Shown: piece by piece, positions 9,200 to 23,431 of the stretch
Layout: each line of letters opens with the position of its first letter
Position numbering within the stretch: the first letter of the stretch is position 1
From: Candidatus Enterousia sp.
GTDB taxonomy: Bacteria; Pseudomonadota; Alphaproteobacteria; Rs-D84
DNA: 64,000 bases
Direction of reading: 5' to 3'
NCBI GenBank assembly: GCA_045539815.1
Contig: JAZQGC010000010.1
Span: 27,583 to 91,582, forward strand
Translations under genes and position numbers: made by a program
The notes under the pieces: generated by a model
Told to the model about the DNA's origin: nothing
Databases searched by the model: none
The model's input: only the letters and a program-made list of their open reading frames with translations

Positions 9200-9856
9200 T
9201 TATTTTTTATTGGCGTTACACCATTTTGCAACGGGGCATTTTTCACATGCTGGACGCAGGGCCTTGCAAAAATACCGGCCATGCAACACCATCACATGAT
9301 TTACAATCGGGTGATATTTTTTTGGGATTTTTTTTATCAGTTTTGCTTCGACTTTTTCGGGTGTATTATCAGATTCATCGACCCAACCATATCGATGCGC
9401 ATTTCTGAAAACATGTGTATCGACACCGATGTTTGGCGCGCCCCATAAAACATTAGAAACAACATTTGCGGTCTTTTGTCCAATACCTGGCAATTTCATT
9501 AATTCATCACGATTATGATATTTTTCTGGGAATTTATCGGTCATATTTTCTGTCACCAGCCGTTCGGCCAATGCGATAATATTTTTTGCCTTGTTATTAA
9601 AGAACGAAATTACTTTGATATGTTCTTTCAGCCCATCGGTTCCCAATTTCAACATTTTTTGTGGTGTTGGGGCCACGCGAAATAATTCGGGCGTTACCTC
9701 GTTTACTTTTTTATCTGTTGCCTGGGCAGATAAAATGACCGCCACCGCAAAGTTAAATTCGTTTGTGTGATACAGTTCCGACCGAATTGACATATCAATT
9801 ACGGCCGGAACATTTCCAAAATACCTTTGCGGTGTCAGCGACATTTTATCTAGCAT
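9200..9856 (-). CDS. nth: endonuclease III
   Basis: 218 aa with the HhH-GPD motif (LPGIGQKTANVV) and a C-terminal 4Fe-4S cluster loop (CKALRPACEKCPVAKWC). Confidence 0.9.
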   Translation of the reverse strand: MLDKMSLTPQRYFGNVPAVIDMSIRSELYHTNEFNFAVAVILSAQATDKKVNEVTPELFRVAPTPQKMLKLGTDGLKEHIKVISFFNNKAKNIIALAERLVTENMTDKFPEKYHNRDELMKLPGIGQKTANVVSNVLWGAPNIGVDTHVFRNAHRYGWVDESDNTPEKVEAKLIKKIPKKYHPIVNHVMVLHGRYFCKALRPACEKCPVAKWCNANKK

Positions 9857-10055
9857 TGTCCTTTTTAAGCAGTAGTTTATTTTGCTTGTCTATAACTGCA
9901 TGCATAAATTTAATCTGTGCTTCTGTCATCGGATCCGATACAAGAATTTTGTGTTCACATTGTTCGTCTGGGCACATGCACATACCGTGTTGTGATTGCT
10001 GCGAGCAGCGTTCAGAGAAATTACTGCAATATGTTTTTGTTTTTAAGCAAATCAT
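9846..10055 (-). CDS. small Cys-rich hypothetical protein (69 aa)
   Basis: ORF wedged between the ileS stop (3 nt spacer) and the nth start (11-nt overlap). Has 6 Cys in the first 33 aa (C3, C10, C17, C26, C28, C33). No family recognised. Confidence 0.35.
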   Translation of the reverse strand: MICLKTKTYCSNFSERCSQQSQHGMCMCPDEQCEHKILVSDPMTEAQIKFMHAVIDKQNKLLLKKDNAR

Positions 10056-10058
10056 TTT

Positions 10059-13000
10059 TTACACCTTTTTTACAGATAATGACAGATTGTATCCATCTAT
10101 TTCAGTATTGTATTCACCATCACCAGATACGATTTCAACAATCAATGCATCACGCATAATACGATTTTTATGCTGTTCAATTGCGCTTGCCAACGCAGGG
10201 TCTGCATTGTATGTCAAAACGATTCGGTCTGACACATCCAGTCCGGCAGATTTACGCGTGTCTTGGATAAAGCGCAACGCATCATTTGCCAAGCCTTCGG
10301 CAATCAGTTCTGCGTTTAATTCTGTATCCAGTACAACAACGGCTGTATTATCTGGCAGTGCGGCCCCGGTAATACCGTCTTTAACCGTCAGGCGATTTTC
10401 AAATTCATCGCTGTTCAGTTCGTATCCGCCCGCCAATAATTTATCGCCTGTGATTTGATATTCATTGCGTTTTACGGCCGGGATAATATCTTTTAACGCC
10501 CCGCCCAAACGTGCGCCAATTTTTGGTGTAATCAGGTACACAAAACTGTCTGCAACATTTGAAATATCAGAATCAAATTTAACAGATTTAACATTTAATT
10601 CGTCTTTGATAATTTCTGCGTATTCTGGCATATTTGCGCCCGCCACAGTCAAAGAATTTAATGGCAATCGATTGCGCAGTTTGTATTGTTCGCGCAACTG
10701 TTTTCCGGTTGAAACGATTGCCTGTACGCGGCGCATATCTTCGACGATTTTTGCATCAAATTCATCAGCAACCGGCCAATCTGTTAGATGCACAGATTCA
10801 TTACCTGTTAAATTGCGATAGATGTATTCAGATATAAATGGCGCAAATGGTGCCAATACTTTGCACAGCCCGATCAGTACTGTATACAATGTATCAAATG
10901 CATCTTGTTCTTCGTCCCAGAATCGTACACGTCCGCGTCTGATATACCAGTTGTTTAATATATCCAAGAATCGAACAAATTCTTTGACTGCCACATCTGG
11001 TTTATATTCATCCAACGCAGATTTTACATTTGTTGTCAGAACACTTAATTCTGCCAATATGTATTTATCCAGCGCATTATCAGAATTTTCAATCTGTTTT
11101 GCGGTTATATTACCTGCGTTTGCATACAGGGTAAAGAAGTGGTATGCGTTCCACAACGGTGTTTGAATTGTTTTTGTTGATTCTGTAAACACTTTACCAT
11201 CTTTATCAACAGGCACAGGTTCTGCCTTCATAAAGTTTGACCCCAATATAAACAAACGTATTGCATCCGCGCCGTATTGTTCGATTTGTTCTGTTGGGTC
11301 AACAAAGTTGCGCAATGATTTCGAGAATTTCTTTTTATTTTCATCAACAATCATACCATTTGCAGAAACAGACATAAATGCTGGCTTATCAAACAACGCT
11401 GTTGCCAATACCATCAAAGAATAGAACCATCCGCGTGTTTGGTCTTGTCCTTCGATAATATAATCAGCGGGGAAAGATGTTTCAAATTTATCCTTGTTTT
11501 CAAACGGATAATGCAACGATGCCCATGGCATAGACCCTGATTCTACCCAGCAATCCAATACATCGCTTATACGGGTCCAACCATCTTTTGTCAGTTTATC
11601 CAATGTTGGGCGATGCAGGTCATCAACCGGAACCCCAAAGAATTCTTCCAGTTCTGCGATTGAACCAAATACTTTGAATTCGCCGTTCTTTTCCCAGATT
11701 GGCAATGGCATACCCCAGAAACGGTTTCTGGATATGGACCAAGGACGGGCATTTTCAATCCAAGAACGGAATCTTTCGCCAGCCGATGTCCAGTTTACCA
11801 TTGCATTATTTGCCAACAGTTTATCTTTGATTTTTGGCACATCGATATACCAAGAATCTGTTGCGCGATAAATCAGTTTTTGTTTACTGCGGTCACCAAA
11901 TGGATAACTGTGCTTATACTGTTCTTTTTTGACCAGTTTACCATTTGTTTTTAACCAATCCAGAATGCGTGGTGTTGCATCAAAAATGTTTTCGCCGGCA
12001 AAATCCGTCACTGTTTCATCAAAGTTGCCATAGTCATCAACATTTAACAAAACAGGAAAATGTGGGTCAACATTTTTTGCCGCCCAAAAGTCGTCTGCAC
12101 CATATGCTGGCGCGATATGAACAATACCTGTACCATCGCTGTCGGATACATAGTCTGCCGGTATTACCTGGAATAATAAATCAGACTGTCCTGCATAATA
12201 TGGGAACAGTGGTGTATAATGTAATCCGGCCAATTCAGCCCCCATTACACGACCAATTTCTGTCGCATTTGCGAATTGTTTTTCATATGCCTTTAATCTG
12301 GATTCTGCGATTACATATACCGCCCCGTCTTCATCTTGCATACGCAGATATTCCATATTTGGATTAACCGCCAATGCGCTGTTTGCAGGCAGTGTCCATG
12401 GTGTTGTTGTCCATGCGATAACACGGTCGCCATTTTCCAATTCGAACCAAACTGTTACGGCGTCATCAACAATTTCACGATAGTCCTGTGATGCTTCGGA
12501 ATTAGAAACCACCGTACCGTTTACCCAGTCATATGGATTAACGCTGTAATCTTTGTACAACAAACCCTTGTCATACAAAGACTTTAATGTCCACAGCATA
12601 GATTCCATATAGTTTTTATTCATTGTTTTATAACCGTATTCGTCGCCAATTTTTACCCAGCGTCCCATACGTGTAATAAAACGATTCCATTCATTTGTAT
12701 ATGTCATAACATCTGTGCGACACATATCACAGAAAGCGGTGATACCTTCTTCTGCGACAATATTTTTGGCGGTTCTGCCCTGCTTTTTTTCAACAGAATT
12801 TTCTGCGGGCAACCCATGGCAATCCCAACCCAGTTCACGGTTAACAAATCGTCCGTTCATTGTCTGAAAGCGCGAAATCATATCTTTTACCACGGTTACG
12901 CCCAGGTGTCCCCAGTGTGGTGTACCATTTGCAAATGGGGGGCCGTCAAAGAAACTAAAAGGCCGTCCAGATTTTGTTTTGTCCAATGCTTTATCAAAAG

Positions 13001-13279: not shown

Positions 13280-13307
13280 AAAAAATCCCCGTCTGGGGAT
13301 TTTTTTT
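13280..13307 (-). terminator. intrinsic terminator after tRNA-Thr
   Basis: ATCCCC-GTCT-GGGGAT flanked by an A-tract and a T-tract. Confidence 0.7.
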
Positions 13308-13312
13308 ATTTC

Positions 13313-13388
13313 TGGTGCCGGTGACAGGACTTGAACCTGCGACCCCCTCATTACGAATGAGATGCTCTACCAGCTGAGCTACACCGGC
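13313..13388 (-). tRNA. tRNA-Thr (anticodon CGU), CCA encoded
   Basis: Reverse complement is GCCGGTGTAGCTCAGCTGGTAGAGCATCTCATTCGTAATGAGGGGGTCGCAGGTTCAAGTCCTGTCACCGGCACCA. It folds as a cloverleaf with anticodon loop TTCGTAA. Confidence 0.9.
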
Positions 13389-13418
13389 ATGTGCCACGAC
13401 TATAAAACATTATACAAA

Positions 13419-13497
13419 CAAATACCAGCAGTTTTTTAGCGCAGTTTGTTAACGTTTTCATACAATTTGCATTTGATAAAATCACAATATGGTTTAT
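13419..13497 (-). repeat. repeat R1, copy a (3' end of the ACP-like ORF plus 17 nt)
   Basis: 79 bp, 75/79 identical to 14072-14150, in direct orientation. Confidence 0.9.
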
Positions 13498-14005
13498 CTG
13501 TATTATTTTCTTGTTTTGGCATATAGCACGGTCTTTCCATCAATTTACAGAATGGTTGATTTTTAACAGTTATGCAAAAACCTGGGTGTTTTATTGTTGG
13601 TTTGTTTGTGTGTTCTTTTGCCTCAGGTTTTAAAACAACAGCTGTACGCTTGTCTTCATGAATATTTAAATTTGATTTTAAGATCTGTTCAAAAACAGGA
13701 ACTTCTTGCTTGTTTTTACGAGCTCTTGAATTGGATTTGTTAAAATTAGATTTATTCCCATTGATATTATGAGTTTCTATAGCCTTTACCATTTCTGAAA
13801 AAGAATAAGAACTATACTTTTCCTCGTCTATGTGGTCGATTCCAAATTCTTTTTCGATATCGAATGACAGTCCAAGTGTGTCCAGGGAATCCAAACCGAT
13901 TTCAAAAAGAAAATTTTGTTTGTTTTTATGTTCTTCCAGTGTTTCAGTACTTATCTCGTATTTCTCTAATAAAATTGTTTTTAATTTTGATTCGACGTTG
14001 CTCAT
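13436..14005 (-). CDS. acyl-carrier-protein domain fused to a low-complexity linker and a Cys-rich C-terminal tail
   Basis: N-terminal ~80 aa has the ACP signature EIGLDSLDTLGLSFDIEKEFGI (DSL phosphopantetheine-attachment serine). This is followed by NGNKSNFNKSNSRARKNKQ and then a tail with 5 Cys (C-x9-C-x6-C-x15-C-x4-C). Confidence 0.6.
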   Translation of the reverse strand: MSNVESKLKTILLEKYEISTETLEEHKNKQNFLFEIGLDSLDTLGLSFDIEKEFGIDHIDEEKYSSYSFSEMVKAIETHNINGNKSNFNKSNSRARKNKQEVPVFEQILKSNLNIHEDKRTAVVLKPEAKEHTNKPTIKHPGFCITVKNQPFCKLMERPCYMPKQENNTDKPYCDFIKCKLYENVNKLR

Positions 14006-14067
14006 TTTTTTATGCCTTTATCTTGCGCATTACGACCATAATACCTGCGGGTGTCATACCCGGGATT
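14005..14067 (-). repeat. repeat R2, copy a (pseudo-copy of the mnmG 3' end)
   Basis: 63 bp, 62/63 identical to 14592-14654. Encodes the last 18 codons of MnmG plus the stop but has no upstream ORF. Confidence 0.9.
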
Positions 14068-14071
14068 AAAG

Positions 14072-14150
14072 CAAATACCAGTAATTTTTTAGCGCAGTTT
14101 GTTAAAGTTTTCATACAACTTGCATTTGATAAAATCACAATATGGTTTAT
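14072..14150 (-). repeat. repeat R1, copy b (out-of-frame relic of the ACP-like ORF tail)
   Basis: Still encodes KPYCDFIKCKLYENFNKLR-stop, but in the -1 frame relative to the upstream ORF. Confidence 0.9.
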
Positions 14151-14153
14151 TCT

Positions 14154-14507
14154 CTATTTTATTTTTTGTTGTACATAAGACAACATAGATGAATTATATT
14201 TTGTTCTTTCTTTCATTGCTGTACGTGCAACAGCTTTATTTAATTCTTCTTTTATTATATTAACCATATAATCTTGTTTTAATACCAAGGTGTTTAAAGT
14301 ATTTGAGGTTGCTTCTATTATGATTTCATTTTTGTCTGTTAAACGTACAACATAATCGTTTGTTTCAAAAGTACTATCGTTTATTTTTTTCGCGCCAGAC
14401 ACACGTAATAAAGAACAAAACAAAGATAATAATTCTTTTTCTTTTTGTTTAGATTCTTGTATTAATTTTTTTTGTTTCTTTTTATTTTTCTTATATTGAT
14501 TGTGCAT
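14154..14507 (-). CDS. hypothetical Lys-rich protein (117 aa from ATG 14507; the track ORF extends to 14558)
   Basis: MHNQYKKNKKKQKKLIQESKQKEKE..., with an AAGGA Shine-Dalgarno sequence 9 nt upstream of ATG 14507. No recognisable family. Possibly frameshifted (see findings). Confidence 0.4.
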   Translation of the reverse strand: MHNQYKKNKKKQKKLIQESKQKEKELLSLFCSLLRVSGAKKINDSTFETNDYVVRLTDKNEIIIEATSNTLNTLVLKQDYMVNIIKEELNKAVARTAMKERTKYNSSMLSYVQQKIK

Positions 14508-14591
14508 ATATTTGTCCTTTTTTTTTATATTGCAAATATAATTACACAAAAACAACAAACGTCAAGTTTTTTTTTGTCAGGTTTCTTATAC

Positions 14592-14654
14592 TTTTTTTAT
14601 GCCTTTATCTTGCGCATTACGACCATAATACCCGCGGGTGTCATACCCGGGATT
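14592..14654 (-). repeat. repeat R2, copy b (genuine 3' end of mnmG plus 5 nt)
   Basis: See R2 copy a. Confidence 0.9.
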
Positions 14655-16240
14655 CTTGACAGGTCTGCAATATTTTCTGGGCGTGTTGCAGTCAGTTTTT
14701 CAATCAATTCATTTGTCAGTCCTGGCAACCCAGTATATTGAAAATCGTGTGGAATTTTTAAATCAGCATCGCGTTTGTATGCGGCGATTTCGCGTTCATT
14801 TCGTGCAATGTATCCGGCATAGAATTTATCGTTTTGTTCAATAATATCTTTTTTAATAGTGTATATTTTATCAAACCATTGTTGTGTGCACAGCCCCAAA
14901 TCAACCCCGATTTTCCCCAGTCGTGCAATTGCATTATCTGCGCGCAGGCTTAATCTGTATTCTGCGCGTGATGTAAACATGCGGTATGGTTCATCAACCC
15001 CCAGTGTTGTTATGTCATCAATCAGAACACCAATCATTGCATTTGTTCGGTCCAGAATCAGCGGTTCTGAATTTAATGCGTATGCGGCGGCATTTGCGCC
15101 CGCGACCAGACCCTGGGCGGCGGCCTCTTCATATCCGGATGTACCGTTAATTTGTCCCGCAAAGAACATATATGGTAAATCTTTGCTTTGCAGTTTATCG
15201 TTCAATGCGCGTGCATCAATTGCATCGTATTCAATTGCATATCCGTATCGTACAATTTCTGCATTTTCAAGCCCCGGGATTGTACGAATCCATTTGTCTT
15301 GGATATCTGCGCCAAAGCTGGTTGATATCCCATTTGGATAAATTAAATCACTGTCCCAGCCTTCGGGTTCCAAGAACACGTGATGTGATATATGTTCTGG
15401 GAAACGCATAACTTTGTCTTCCAGACTGGGGCAATATCTGGGTCCTGTGCCCCGAATATCGCCGTTATACATTGGTGCGTTTTTTATATTTTCGCGAATA
15501 ATATCGTGTGTTTCCTGTGTTGTGTGTGTGATATAACAAACGCTGTCATATTTGTTGTTTTTATCCCCCCCTGCGAACCAATCGTGTGGCGCGTCGCCCG
15601 GTTGAATTTCGCATACAGAAAAATCAATAGATTCACGTTTTATACGTGCAGGTGTCCCTGTCTTTAATCGCAGTATTTTAAATCCGGCCCTTTGTAAAAC
15701 GCCCGATATGTTTTTGTCATTATCTTGGTATGTTCCATCGTCTTGCAGGCGTCCAGACGGGATTTTTTCGCTGCCGCGTGTAACAACCCCTTCCAGGAAC
15801 GTCCCGGTTGTCAGAACAATTGCATCTGCGCAATATTTATCATTGATTGTTTTTTCTTCTATATCAAATGTTTTAACTGCTTCAAAAACAACATCTAAAT
15901 TGTCATATTCGCCCAGAATATCAACAACGGCATTATGATATAAATTTCTGTCAATTTGTGCGCGCAGTGCCTGGGTTGCGGCACCGTGTGTTGCGTTCAG
16001 CGTGCGCCAGTGTATCCCAGAACGGTCTGCGGCGCGTCCCATTACACCACCCAGCGCGGTTATTTCTGCAACCATTTGTGATTTCCCGGGGCCACCAATA
16101 CTTGGGTTACAAGACAACGCACCCAAATCAGATTCTGCCTGGGTTAACAGCAGTGTTTTTGCACCACGACGCGCCGCCGCTGCTGCTGCTTCGACACCGG
16201 CATGCCCACCACCAATAACAATGACATTATACTTTTGCAT
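14597..16240 (-). CDS. mnmG: tRNA uridine 5-carboxymethylaminomethyl modification enzyme MnmG (GidA)
   Basis: 547 aa (short form) with an FAD-binding N-terminus (VIVIGGGHAGVEAA) and GidA family blocks (GPRYCPSLEDK, FFAGQINGTSGYEEAAAQG). Confidence 0.95.
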   Translation of the reverse strand: MQKYNVIVIGGGHAGVEAAAAAARRGAKTLLLTQAESDLGALSCNPSIGGPGKSQMVAEITALGGVMGRAADRSGIHWRTLNATHGAATQALRAQIDRNLYHNAVVDILGEYDNLDVVFEAVKTFDIEEKTINDKYCADAIVLTTGTFLEGVVTRGSEKIPSGRLQDDGTYQDNDKNISGVLQRAGFKILRLKTGTPARIKRESIDFSVCEIQPGDAPHDWFAGGDKNNKYDSVCYITHTTQETHDIIRENIKNAPMYNGDIRGTGPRYCPSLEDKVMRFPEHISHHVFLEPEGWDSDLIYPNGISTSFGADIQDKWIRTIPGLENAEIVRYGYAIEYDAIDARALNDKLQSKDLPYMFFAGQINGTSGYEEAAAQGLVAGANAAAYALNSEPLILDRTNAMIGVLIDDITTLGVDEPYRMFTSRAEYRLSLRADNAIARLGKIGVDLGLCTQQWFDKIYTIKKDIIEQNDKFYAGYIARNEREIAAYKRDADLKIPHDFQYTGLPGLTNELIEKLTATRPENIADLSRIPGMTPAGIMVVMRKIKA

Positions 16241-16968
16241 TAAAATCTTCCCATACCACCATTTACATGCAAAACCTGTCCGTTGATATACGCGGCTTCA
16301 TCGGATGCCAAGAACACGCATGCATTTGCAATATCTTCTGGTTCGCCAAAACGACCGGCTGGAATCTGTGCCAGATAATTTTTCTTTAATTCTTCGGGCA
16401 AGACATCGGTCATTGGTGTTTTTATAAATCCTGGTGCGATTGCATTTGCGGTGATACCGCGTGATGCAACCTCGGCTGCGATTGATTTTGTCATTGCAAT
16501 CATACCACCCTTGCTTGCGGCATAGTTTGCCTGACCTGGGCCACCGATTGTGCCGATTATAGACGCCATATTAATAATGCGTCCGAAACGATTTTTCATC
16601 ATTGGCATAATTACCGCGCGGCACATTTTGAAACAAGAACGCAGATTAGTATTCATAACATCATCAAATTGTTCATCTGTCATGCGCATTAATAATGTAT
16701 CTTTTGTGATACCAGCGTTGTTGATAAGAATATCAATTTTTCCGGCCTGTTCGATTGTTTCCATAACCAGTTCGACTGCCCCACCTTCGGCGGATAAATC
16801 GCATGGGATTTTAATATAACCATCCCCAAATTCTGCGTCCATTTTTGCAGTATTACGACCAGACACAACCACAGTTGCCCCTGCTTCCTTCATTTTTTTT
16901 GCGATTTGTATACCGATACCACCTGTGGCGCCAGTAATTAATGCGACTTTACCTGTTAAATCAAACAT
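16240..16968 (-). CDS. fabG: 3-oxoacyl-ACP reductase
   Basis: 242-aa SDR with TGATGGIG, NNAG and YAASKGG motifs. Its stop overlaps the mnmG start (TAATG). Confidence 0.9.
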   Translation of the reverse strand: MFDLTGKVALITGATGGIGIQIAKKMKEAGATVVVSGRNTAKMDAEFGDGYIKIPCDLSAEGGAVELVMETIEQAGKIDILINNAGITKDTLLMRMTDEQFDDVMNTNLRSCFKMCRAVIMPMMKNRFGRIINMASIIGTIGGPGQANYAASKGGMIAMTKSIAAEVASRGITANAIAPGFIKTPMTDVLPEELKKNYLAQIPAGRFGEPEDIANACVFLASDEAAYINGQVLHVNGGMGRF

Positions 16969-16969
16969 A

Positions 16970-17845
16970 TTATATCTCCAATTTATGTGCGGTTATTTTA
17001 TCTGTAATTCGTGAACACAATCCGGTCAATACATTACCAGGACCGACTTCTGTCATTTCTGTGATACCCATATCTGCCATGTTCAAGACACTTTCACGCC
17101 AACGCACGCCATGTGTCATTTGATAAACCAGTGCGTCTTTTATTTCATTAACATCTGTTATTGGTGAACATGTTTTATTTGAAATCAATGGAACGATTGG
17201 TGTTTTCATATCAACATTATCCAACGCTTTTTTCATTGCATCTGCTGCAGGTTGTTGAATTCTGCAATGTACGGGCACAGACAATGCCAATGGCATTGCG
17301 CGTTTTGCACCCTGTTCTTTGGCCATGTTCATCGCTGTTTCAACGGCGTTTTTTTCGCCAGAAATAACAACCTGGCCGGCACTGTTATCATTTGCAACAT
17401 CACAACCGGCCTCATCGCAGATTTTTTTCAATGTATCAATATCCATACCCAGAACAACAGCGGTTAAACCATGTCCCACGGGCACTGCGGTTTGCATTGC
17501 GTTTCCGCGTGCGCGCAATAATTTTGCGGTGTCCCCCACAGACAATGCGCCCGCGGCGCACAGCGCGGTATATTCACCCAAAGAATGTCCTGCGACATAT
17601 TCTGGGATTATCGCACCACTGGCGCGCAACATCGCAATAGATGTCGCCATAATTGCCGGCTGAACATTTGCTGTCAGTGTTAAATTTTCCATTGGGCCAT
17701 TAAAAATAATATCGGACAGTTTTTCACCCAATGCGCTATCAACTTCGTCAAACACGGCACGTGCTGCGGCATTGTTTTCATATAAATCTTTGCCCATACC
17801 AACGACCTGTGCGCCTTGACCTGGGAATACGAATACAGATGACAT
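16970..17845 (-). CDS. fabD: malonyl CoA-ACP transacylase
   Basis: 291 aa with FPGQGAQ and the GHSLGEY active-site motif. Confidence 0.9.
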   Translation of the reverse strand: MSSVFVFPGQGAQVVGMGKDLYENNAAARAVFDEVDSALGEKLSDIIFNGPMENLTLTANVQPAIMATSIAMLRASGAIIPEYVAGHSLGEYTALCAAGALSVGDTAKLLRARGNAMQTAVPVGHGLTAVVLGMDIDTLKKICDEAGCDVANDNSAGQVVISGEKNAVETAMNMAKEQGAKRAMPLALSVPVHCRIQQPAADAMKKALDNVDMKTPIVPLISNKTCSPITDVNEIKDALVYQMTHGVRWRESVLNMADMGITEMTEVGPGNVLTGLCSRITDKITAHKLEI

Positions 17846-22090: not shown

Positions 22091-23431
22091 TTACTTCAAG
22101 AATTTTTCCAACCATTTATTATCAAAGTTTAATTGTTTAACATCTTTGTTTGCCAACAGTTTTCGTTGCAAAGGTATTGTTGTTTTTACGCCTTCGATAA
22201 CAAATTCGTCCAATGCGCGTGTTGCACGCATTATACATGCGGGTCTGTTTTGTGCATGTACAATTAATTTTGCAATCATTGAATCGTATGTTGGTGGGAT
22301 TGTGTATCCTGTGTATACAGCGCTGTCTACGCGCACGCCCAGTCCGCCAGATGGCGCATACAATGAAATTTTTCCTGGGTTTGGCATAAATGTTTCTGGG
22401 TCTTCTGCATTTATACGAAATTCAATTGCATGTCCATTTGGTATAACATTTGATTGCGTATACCCCAGTTTTTCACCCGCGGCCACCCTGATTTGTTCAC
22501 GAACCAAATCGATGCCGTATACCATTTCTGTTACGGGATGTTCGACCTGTAATCTGGTATTCATTTCCAAGAAATAGAAATTACCGTCTTCGAACATAAA
22601 TTCAAATGTTCCTGCATTTGTGTATCCCATTTTTTTTGCGGCGTTTTTACAGATTTCAATCATATCGTCGCGTTGTTTTTGGGATAATATTGCGGCGGGG
22701 CATTCTTCCATAATCTTTTGATTGCGTCTTTGCAACGAGCAATCACGTTCACCGAAAATAACAACATTTCCATGCTTGTCACCCAAGACCTGGAATTCGA
22801 TATGTCTGGGGTGTGTTAACAGCTTTTCCATATACAGTGTTCCGTCGCCAAACGCGGACAGTGCCTCGTTCTTGGTCAGTTGAAAAGCCTCGTGCATTTC
22901 TTGTTCGCATGTAACTGGTCGCATACCGCGTCCGCCACCGCCAGCCGCAGCTTTCAGCATAACAGGATATCCGATTTTTTGCGCTGTATCCAGTGCCACT
23001 TCCAGTGTTTCGACGGCGCCATCAGAACCCGGTACCACGGGCAATCCACATTCTATTGCGGTTTTTTTTGCATTAACCTTGTCGCCCATTTTTGTAATCA
23101 TTTCTGGCGCGGGTCCAATCCATATCATACCGTGTTGTTCAACCTTGGCTGCAAAATCCGCGCGTTCAGACAAGAACCCATAACCTGGGTGTATTGCATC
23201 TGCGTTTGTCAGTAATGCCGCGGTTAATATTGCGGATTCATTTAAATAAGAATCCTTGGCTGGTGCGGGTCCGATACATACGGATTCGTCTGCCAGTTGT
23301 ACATGCATTGCATCTTTGTCTGCGGTTGAATATATTGCGACGGTACGAATACCCATATCGCGACATGCGCGAATTACACGCAGTGCAATTTCACCGCGGT
23401 TTGCAATTAATACTTTTTTTATTTGTGACAT
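22091..23431 (-). CDS. accC: acetyl-CoA carboxylase biotin carboxylase subunit
   Basis: 446 aa with an ATP-grasp fold (KAAAGGGGRGMR, EMNTRLQVEHPVTE). Downstream of accB. Confidence 0.95.
   Translation of the reverse strand: MSQIKKVLIANRGEIALRVIRACRDMGIRTVAIYSTADKDAMHVQLADESVCIGPAPAKDSYLNESAILTAALLTNADAIHPGYGFLSERADFAAKVEQHGMIWIGPAPEMITKMGDKVNAKKTAIECGLPVVPGSDGAVETLEVALDTAQKIGYPVMLKAAAGGGGRGMRPVTCEQEMHEAFQLTKNEALSAFGDGTLYMEKLLTHPRHIEFQVLGDKHGNVVIFGERDCSLQRRNQKIMEECPAAILSQKQRDDMIEICKNAAKKMGYTNAGTFEFMFEDGNFYFLEMNTRLQVEHPVTEMVYGIDLVREQIRVAAGEKLGYTQSNVIPNGHAIEFRINAEDPETFMPNPGKISLYAPSGGLGVRVDSAVYTGYTIPPTYDSMIAKLIVHAQNRPACIMRATRALDEFVIEGVKTTIPLQRKLLANKDVKQLNFDNKWLEKFLK

Follow-up and report, generated by a model that had tools for sequence, protein, structure and literature searches.

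Between mnmG and a tRNA-Thr gene of Candidatus Enterousia sp., two small genes that bear no resemblance to each other are framed by near-identical flanking sequences, and the question raised by this locus is how unrelated genes came to share the same borders. The locus lies in a 64,000-nucleotide stretch of DNA, termed the window throughout (assembly GCA_045539815.1, contig JAZQGC010000010.1, positions 27,583-91,582). The original prediction interpreted the arrangement as a Campbell-type insertion, in which a circularised fragment carrying an alternative allele had entered a resident locus by a single crossover. The comparative analysis described here favors another answer: a tandem array of single origin, subsequently changed by unequal homologous recombination, gene conversion and transfer of the whole locus, with no dedicated recombinase. 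We assign this reading a probability of roughly 0.6.

On the minus strand, the order of elements is fabD, fabG, mnmG (ending in repeat R2), orf117, R1', R2', an open reading frame (ORF) encoding a protein that resembles acyl carrier protein (ACP) and ending in repeat R1, tRNA-Thr(CGT) and ileS (Table 1). In a repeat search of the window, the two 63-nucleotide R2 copies were in direct orientation and matched at 62 of 63 positions, exactly as first described. The R1 pair (13416-13497 and 14069-14150) was identical at 77 of 82 positions (94%), R1 and R1' differing at 5 positions; the 79-nucleotide core reported earlier lies inside this repeat, which measures 82-83 nucleotides. The 64 kb contain exactly two copies of each repeat, where shuffled sequences lead one to expect 0. 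The bodies enclosed by the repeats, 441 nucleotides in the orf117 unit (14151-14591) and 507 nucleotides in the ACP-like unit (13498-14004), were indeed unrelated, with no similarity detected between them by blastn, tblastx or a family hidden Markov model (HMM) run over six frames. The antisense peptide said to be common to two plus-strand ORFs was likewise present in the ORF list. The GC content is 25-33% across the two small genes versus ∼42% in the flanks, and the spacer between mnmG and orf117 measures 85 nucleotides.

The best MnmG matches among the GTDB species representatives, 78-79% identical, belonged to uncultured gut Alphaproteobacteria, including Candidatus Enterousia. Genomes in the Candidatus Enterousia-like group (order Rs-D84) are smaller than ∼1 Mb (PMC12306168). 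Differing unit content among related strains, which the original prediction had proposed to look for, was readily found. In four one-unit loci (L082, L083, L084 and L085), an ACP-like gene encoding 169, 189, 142 or 134 amino acids begins 4 nucleotides after mnmG and is followed by R1 and tRNA-Thr. A Logan contig in run X26, whose ACP-like gene is a close relative of that of the window, likewise has one unit, and passes from position 14004 directly to 14593, thereby skipping 588 nucleotides of the window arrangement. Two-unit loci comprise the window, L081 (NCBI metagenome-assembled genome GCA_045629645.1) and the ENA contigs L086 and L090-L093. Still longer arrays were observed in L087, L088 and L089, from three samples, in the order mnmG with R2, ACP128, R1-R2, ACP189, R1-R2, ACP134, R1, tRNA-Thr, ACP164, R1 and tRNA-Thr. 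These contain three R2 copies, four R1 copies, four ACP-like paralogues and two tRNA-Thr genes, and the units of L087 are paralogous ACP-like genes. The duplicated tRNA-Thr(CGT) genes of L087 (4107-4182 and 4831-4906) enclose the 164-amino-acid paralogue, as they do in L088 and L089, and define a second kind of unit, a repeat of at least 300 nucleotides (91% identical) that covers the ACP-like C-terminal region, R1 and the tRNA. Unit lengths across the arrays range from 469 to 654 nucleotides. The locus is thus a head-to-tail array with constant flanks, whose unit number (one, two, or three plus one) and content differ between lineages.

The geometry of R2' and the ACP-like gene in the window equals that of mnmG and the ACP-like gene in one-unit relatives (e.g., L084 and L085), and the ACP-like gene is therefore the resident. 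It follows that the addition consists of orf117, R1' and R2', 587 nucleotides in total, and the claim that the two genes are alternative alleles of one locus fails, given that an ACP-like gene sits 4 nucleotides after mnmG in all of the one-unit relatives. The ancestral state was presumably that of L082-L085, namely mnmG, 4 nucleotides, a single ACP-like gene and tRNA-Thr. Species that are more distant differ in the interval between mnmG and tRNA-Thr, which is nearly empty (38 nucleotides in L003, ∼90 in L005), contains small opposite-strand ORFs and no ACP-like gene (∼550 nucleotides in L001, 5987-6455), or carries a 364-amino-acid ORF (∼1.2 kb in L002, 6379-7473). Since both its length and its cargo vary among distant species, this interval is a variable spot in general.

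The origin of the array is recorded at the joint between R1' and R2', for which all copies of R1 and R2 were aligned together with their surroundings. In single-unit relatives R1 runs ...TATTTGCTTT/TATAAT (the slash marking the place of the joint), and unduplicated R1 continues ...GGTATTTGCTTT/TATAATG..., including the TATAAT upstream of tRNA-Thr, while the genuine mnmG end reads ...CTGTCAAG/AATCCCGGG.... All of the array joints read ...GGTATTTGCTTT/AATCCCGGG... (...GCTTT/AATCCC...), with a spacer of 0 and no microhomology between the parental sequences; the breakpoint of the duplication lies just 5' of the TATAAT upstream of tRNA-Thr. Because comparison with the one-unit relatives extends R1' to 14068, the joint falls between 14068 and 14067 without a spacer, and the 4-nucleotide gap (14068-14071) formerly placed there disappears.

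The same joint separates orf117 from ACP189 (in the window, L081 and L086), ACP128 from ACP189, and ACP189 from ACP134 (both in L087 and L089). It was aligned from the window, L081 and L086 and from two positions each in L087 and L089, with L090-L093 colinear across it, and none of the one-unit loci L082-L085 contained it. A breakpoint that is arbitrary and yet shared by every array must have arisen once and was then inherited or spread, since independent circularisations are not expected to give the same join each time. The suggestion that this joint is the circle junction of one particular insertion is difficult to maintain, as it also occurs in arrays with other bodies. Independent gut metagenomes likewise yielded Logan contigs that cross the joint (X1 records 6 and 7, X2 record 13, X3/X4 record 21 and X7 record 16), at a depth similar to that of both bodies, and the joint was recovered from assemblies or unitigs of at least 4 independent studies. 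Scans of metagenome_contigs with the joint and with the R1 pattern gave 0 matches each.

Evidence for exchange between lineages was obtained from segment identities. Across L081-L089, the ACP-like segment is 94-100% identical versus 75-90% in fabD, fabG, mnmG and ileS; for L082 and L084 compared with the window, the corresponding values are 94-98% in the ACP-like gene and R1, and 75-78% in the four housekeeping genes. The locus therefore moves by homologous recombination through its conserved flanks. In L081, the housekeeping genes are 82-90% identical to those of the window, and a far more similar tract of ∼1.6 kb (100-nucleotide windows; Table 1) takes in the whole array, beginning at the mnmG 3' end and reaching the start of ileS. 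The array is thus transferred as a single block, through double crossover in the conserved flanks. A second tract shared with L081 (window 9700-10800) covers the ileS 3' end and downstream sequence, being 96-100% identical between flanks of ∼85-90%; mosaic recombination is therefore common between these lineages and is not confined to the array locus.

Exchange within the array left traces of its own. The window copies R2 and R2' share a window-specific ending, ...AAAGGCATAA (...GGCATAA), which suggests gene conversion between repeat copies; the two L081 copies differ from each other at ∼6 positions. R1' of the window resembles the R1 of other lineages (97.6% identity to that of L083) more than the R1 of the window itself (94%). 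Two mosaic proteins, P0003 of L083 (a 134-type N-terminus with a 189-type remainder) and P0012 (a 128-type N-terminus with a 189-type linker), suggest recombination among paralogues and alleles.

From these data we infer the following order of events. Starting from an ancestor with one ACP-like gene between mnmG and tRNA-Thr, a single illegitimate end-joining event would have duplicated a segment that begins inside the mnmG 3' end (63 nucleotides) and ends 22 nucleotides past the ACP-like stop codon, thereby creating the joint ...GCTTT/AATCCC.... Because each unit now starts with R2 and ends with R1, units could then have been added, lost and homogenised by unequal homologous recombination and gene conversion between the repeat copies, yielding one, two or three. 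Divergence would have altered the bodies, as would mosaic recombination among paralogues and alleles; in the first slot of the window array, orf117 with its own upstream region would have taken the place of nearly the whole ACP-like body. The entire locus would finally have passed between diverged lineages, by double crossover in the mnmG 3' end and in either tRNA-Thr or the ileS 5' end. No recombinase, integrase or transposase was found among the Pfam-scanned ORFs of window 0.9-25.7 kb, which, for ∼12 kb around the locus, agrees with the earlier statement that the window has no recombinase gene; none was found near the L081 copy either, where the called genes are housekeeping genes or small ORFs without a Pfam match.

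Several points weigh against this reconstruction. No homology was detected between the orf117 body and the ACP-like bodies, such that the units are not homologous over their full length, and the placement of orf117 requires an additional, unobserved event, in the form of either a pair of illegitimate joins or import from an allele outside the sample. Flank identity is 92-100% and the bodies cannot be aligned, a combination that requires conversion or recent exchange, for which the evidence is indirect. All of the data consist of metagenome assemblies and unitigs, and no long reads cross whole arrays. The founding event, moreover, could equally have been a Campbell insertion, which has the same topology as unequal crossing-over.

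A recent Campbell insertion is, among the alternatives, the one that survives best, although we regard it as unlikely. It would hold that a linear R2-orf117-R1 fragment from a strain with orf117 only was circularised and entered a resident R2-ACP-R1 locus by a single crossover, with 14067/14068 as the circle junction. The A-X-B-A-Y-B topology is exactly that predicted, R2 and R2' flanking orf117 with R1', and R1' and R1 flanking R2' with the ACP-like gene. Recipients would have been available in the form of the one-unit relatives (L082-L085 and X26), and the greater similarity of R1' to the R1 of other lineages fits a foreign origin of unit 1. This account must nevertheless explain why base-for-base the same joint separates different pairs of bodies in L087-L089. 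The single allele it requires, mnmG-orf117-R1-tRNA, was absent from all of the orf117-carrying contigs read, circles being indistinguishable from arrays in unitigs; 63-83 nucleotides of homology constitute a poor substrate for a single crossover; and the tract shared with L081 records block movement by double crossover, one exchange lying in mnmG and the other near the start of ileS. The concept of a swappable site with constant flanks accordingly holds in that unit number and content vary, whereas a fresh Campbell insertion is not supported.

It is also conceivable, if rather improbable, that in these genome-reduced gut symbionts the R2-body-R1 units form a cassette locus that generates diversity under selection. 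Its modules, such as several ACP-like N-domains, the Cys-rich tail and an orf117-like domain, would undergo shuffling and interspecies exchange at a fixed chromosomal site, for example in an interaction or contingency function, perhaps with an unrecognised recombination activity.

An integron-like site-specific system, in which the composite of R1 and R2 (∼146 nucleotides) would serve as the site and an unlinked recombinase would move the R2-body-R1 units, is disfavored and very improbable. Constant ends, variable bodies, varying copy number, identical boundaries and exchange across diverged lineages would all be accommodated by such a system. R2, however, is the coding 3' end of mnmG, and R1 that of the ACP-like gene, with sequence from upstream of the tRNA. 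A repeat search revealed no inverted repeat spanning the composite, and single-strand folding of 14005-14150 gave no excess structure on either strand relative to shuffles (z 0.00 and -0.20), so that an attC-like structure at the joint was rejected. The scanned part of the window and the L081 neighborhood lack an integrase or transposase, and the second unit of L087, bounded by tRNA-Thr copies, fits homology-driven rather than site-specific events. The head-to-tail stitching of two strain variants by an assembler has practically no chance of being correct, even if the samples are strain mixtures, Logan contigs break at repeats and the ends of contig L093 overlap as if from a cycle in the assembly graph, because the joint forms a unitig of its own in X1, X2, X3/X4 and X7 at a depth near that of both bodies and independent assemblies (L081, L086 and L090-L093) give the same arrangement with copies that differ in sequence, including the 5 differences between R1 and R1'; the assembly error that would have overturned the original prediction is thereby set aside.

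The tandem-array reading places the locus among well-known processes. Bacterial tandem duplications expand and contract by unequal homologous recombination, as in Salmonella and Escherichia coli. The present array resembles these classical duplications in its head-to-tail units, its one novel junction, the polymorphism of one, two or three units, the conversion-homogenised flanks and the lack of need for a dedicated enzyme. It differs in its very short units, in bodies that have diverged beyond alignment, one of them an unrelated ORFan, and, with respect to transient amplifications, in the stable presence of arrays in several lineages. In Streptococcus pneumoniae, transformation yields merodiploids, tandem duplications with two versions of a gene that are bordered by repeats and arise when homologous DNA recombines by alternative pairing and unequal crossing-over; these were demonstrated experimentally and extend over 100-900 kb between repeats derived from insertion sequences (PMC3784515). 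By comparison, the unit described here measures ∼0.6 kb, and the repeats are gene ends.

Integron arrays possess intI with attI, and attC sites that form hairpins, and the chromosomal arrays of Vibrio cholerae contain nearly identical attC repeats. The locus shares with them the short single-gene units, the conserved boundaries, the unrelated contents and the variation in number between strains, in contrast to which it has no intI among the scanned ORFs and no attC-like fold, its boundaries are duplicated coding ends and its bodies are mostly paralogues. Campbell integration would likewise produce the A-X-B-A-Y-B order with direct repeats of a homologous segment, but neither circle nor donor allele was observed, and the joint is common to arrays with different contents. 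Unlike a tRNA-targeting integrative island, the window has a single tRNA-Thr with no partial tRNA copy and, in the 0.9-25.7 kb scan, no integrase; L087 duplicates a whole tRNA together with an ACP-like gene. The locus thus represents a new instance of a known process, in an uncharacterised gene family of a reduced genome, and reveals no new mechanism of recombination. It provides a natural example of how one illegitimate duplication can create portable homology, on which ordinary recombination then acts in a manner that mimics a cassette system. As one of the few plastic spots in a genome of less than ∼1 Mb, exchanged across lineages that are 10-25% diverged in their housekeeping genes, it singles out the ACP-like/Cys-tail genes, and perhaps orf117, as likely to have accessory or interaction roles.

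The ACP-like family comprises 12 clusters at 90% identity and is restricted to this clade. The protein of the window scored 22.7 bits against PF00550 (cut-off 20.8), and NCBIfam ACP models matched it below their cut-offs, with the AcpP equivalogs at ∼36 bits versus the 92-106 required. In an AlphaFold2 model, helices occupy residues 3-83, with a predicted local distance difference test score (pLDDT) of ∼90 for residues 1-83 and <50 beyond, and the N-terminal ∼80 residues are predicted to adopt the four-helix ACP fold. Identity to E. coli AcpP was 32% over 79 residues. This domain is followed by a disordered, indel-prone linker and a nearly invariant tail of ∼50 residues with five Cys (HPGFCITVKNQPFCKLMERPCYMPKQENNTDKPYCDFIKCKLYENFNKLR). 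The window copy (GLDSLD), like the 128-, 164- and 189-amino-acid types, has the serine of the DSL motif, whereas the 134-amino-acid type has LDDID or LDDLD, in which the attachment serine is replaced (L085 4001-4405 and L087 3655-4059).

In L085, this serine-less type is the sole ACP-like copy between mnmG and tRNA-Thr, and for this reason the family is unlikely to represent the housekeeping AcpP. Its predicted four-helix fold, its DSL serine motif and its position next to fabD and fabG recall AcpP, in contrast to the disordered linker, the five-Cys tail, the multiple copies, the rapid evolution and the loss of the serine in the 134-amino-acid paralogues. The order fabD-fabG-acpP occurs in many bacteria, and that of the window is fabD-fabG-mnmG-ACP-like (13436-17845); a tblastn search of the 64 kb with E. 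coli AcpP as the query detected no other ACP. Accessory, fast-evolving proteins built on an ACP-like scaffold are the probable products. In a single run flagged as possibly RNA (X25), the contig covers the ACP-like body only.

Among 5.8e9 proteins, orf117 falls into a single cluster of 8 members at 90% identity, and a HMMER search of 1.8e9 representatives returned orf117 itself and one weak repeat match. No match was found in Pfam, PHROGs, PADLOC or NCBIfam, none by tblastn in phages or plasmids, and none between the predicted fold and the PDB at E<=0.001. Its single-sequence AlphaFold2 model consists of a helix, five strands and a helix (pLDDT 71). This model, an in-frame 6-nucleotide indel in L081 and the promoter-like site upstream suggest that orf117 is a real gene. 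All 7 of the nucleotide differences between the window and L086 copies are nonsynonymous, and purifying selection is therefore not evident. In all of the orf117-carrying contigs read (L081, L086, L090-L093 and the window), orf117 occupies slot 1 of a two-unit array. Its derivation from a decayed or frameshifted ACP-like copy was rejected, as blastn, tblastx and the family HMM over six frames matched only R1'.

A possible lead on how orf117 relates to the ACP-like genes comes from the other side of the tRNA. Just downstream of tRNA-Thr, L085 (4646-5347) and L083 (927-1649) carry a gene for a protein of 233-240 amino acids. This protein resembles ACP in its N-terminal half (45% identity to ACP164, E=3e-27), and its C-terminal ∼110 residues also occur as stand-alone proteins of 118-123 residues (P0039-41). 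orf117 aligns end to end with P0039, which has the same length, at z = 4.9-5.2 relative to 2000 shuffles; for the C-domain of the 233-amino-acid fusion and P0039-41 as a whole, z ranges from 3.2 to 5.2. BLASTP (E=0.03) and hhalign (probability 0.6%) did not confirm homology to P0039 or the fusion C-domain. The product of orf117 may thus be remotely related to the C-domain of the ACP-like fusion, and, were this homology real, orf117 would not be foreign DNA but one module of this gene system.

Table 1. Features of the mnmG-tRNA-Thr locus (positions in the window).
Feature	Position	Strand	Remarks
mnmG, 547 amino acids, intact	14597..16240	-	Pfam GIDA 1.5e-141, SAM_GIDA_C 5.8e-19; orthologues in L001-L009 and L081-L089; 3' end is the source of R2
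R2, genuine copy	14592..14654	-	Final 18 mnmG codons, stop and 5 nucleotides; left end of unit 1
Promoter-like site, TTGACG-16 nucleotides-AATTAT with TG	14538..14565	-	Upstream of orf117; consensus match only, count of such sites in the region not above shuffle expectation
orf117, 117 amino acids, lineage-restricted ORFan, body of unit 1	14154..14507	-	Alternative TTG start at 14558 gives 134 amino acids
R1', non-coding remnant of the ACP-like 3' end	14068..14150	-	20 codons, stop and 22 nucleotides of the region upstream of tRNA-Thr; ends at the joint
Joint, ...GGTATTTGCTTT/AATCCCGGGTATGAC...	14067..14068	.	Identical in all arrays found
R2', non-coding copy of the mnmG 3' end	14005..14067	-	Native 4-nucleotide spacing and AAAGG Shine-Dalgarno-like motif ahead of the ACP-like ATG
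ACP-like gene, 189 amino acids, body of unit 2	13436..14005	-	N-terminal predicted ACP fold with LDSLD motif, disordered linker, conserved Cys-rich tail of ∼50 residues
R1, genuine copy	13416..13497	-	Final 20 ACP-like codons, stop and ∼20 nucleotides
Conserved region upstream of tRNA-Thr, contains TATAAT	13389..13437	-	Homology to species without an ACP-like gene begins at ∼13437-13440
tRNA-Thr(CGT), right-hand conserved anchor	13313..13388	-	tRNA call
Recombination tract shared with L081	13050..14650	.	96-100% identical; flanking housekeeping genes ∼88%

Exact-sequence look-ups of the ACP-like protein of the window, of orf117 with both possible starts and of MnmG returned no record, and in a blastn search of plasmids with the locus the tRNA was the sole match. 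The TATAAT-containing region upstream of tRNA-Thr may act as a promoter, and a bidirectional terminator-like hairpin with an 11-pair stem lies between tRNA-Thr and ileS (13280-13305). Elsewhere in the window, 22091-23431 encodes AccC.

Some minor features of individual contigs were also recorded. Contig L093 (614 nucleotides) begins with TTT and R2 (1-66) and ends inside R2' (585-614); an overlap of this kind is expected from a graph cycle, R2 being equal to R2', and is therefore in itself no evidence of a circle. Two low-depth X2 contigs contain odd joints, one (13677/14603) linking a diverged mnmG end to 30 nucleotides that resemble the ACP-like linker, and the other (14134/13545) corresponding to the loss of 63 nucleotides, in frame, from the Cys-rich region. 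Additional paralogues or linker-deletion variants of co-occurring strains are their probable source. Finally, an ORF of 42 codons on the minus strand (14010-14138) runs from a non-ACP frame in R1' into the mnmG frame in R2' and ends ...IPGMTPAGIMVVMRKIKA; pieces of it were annotated by gene callers in L092 and L093, and it was almost certainly created incidentally by the joint.

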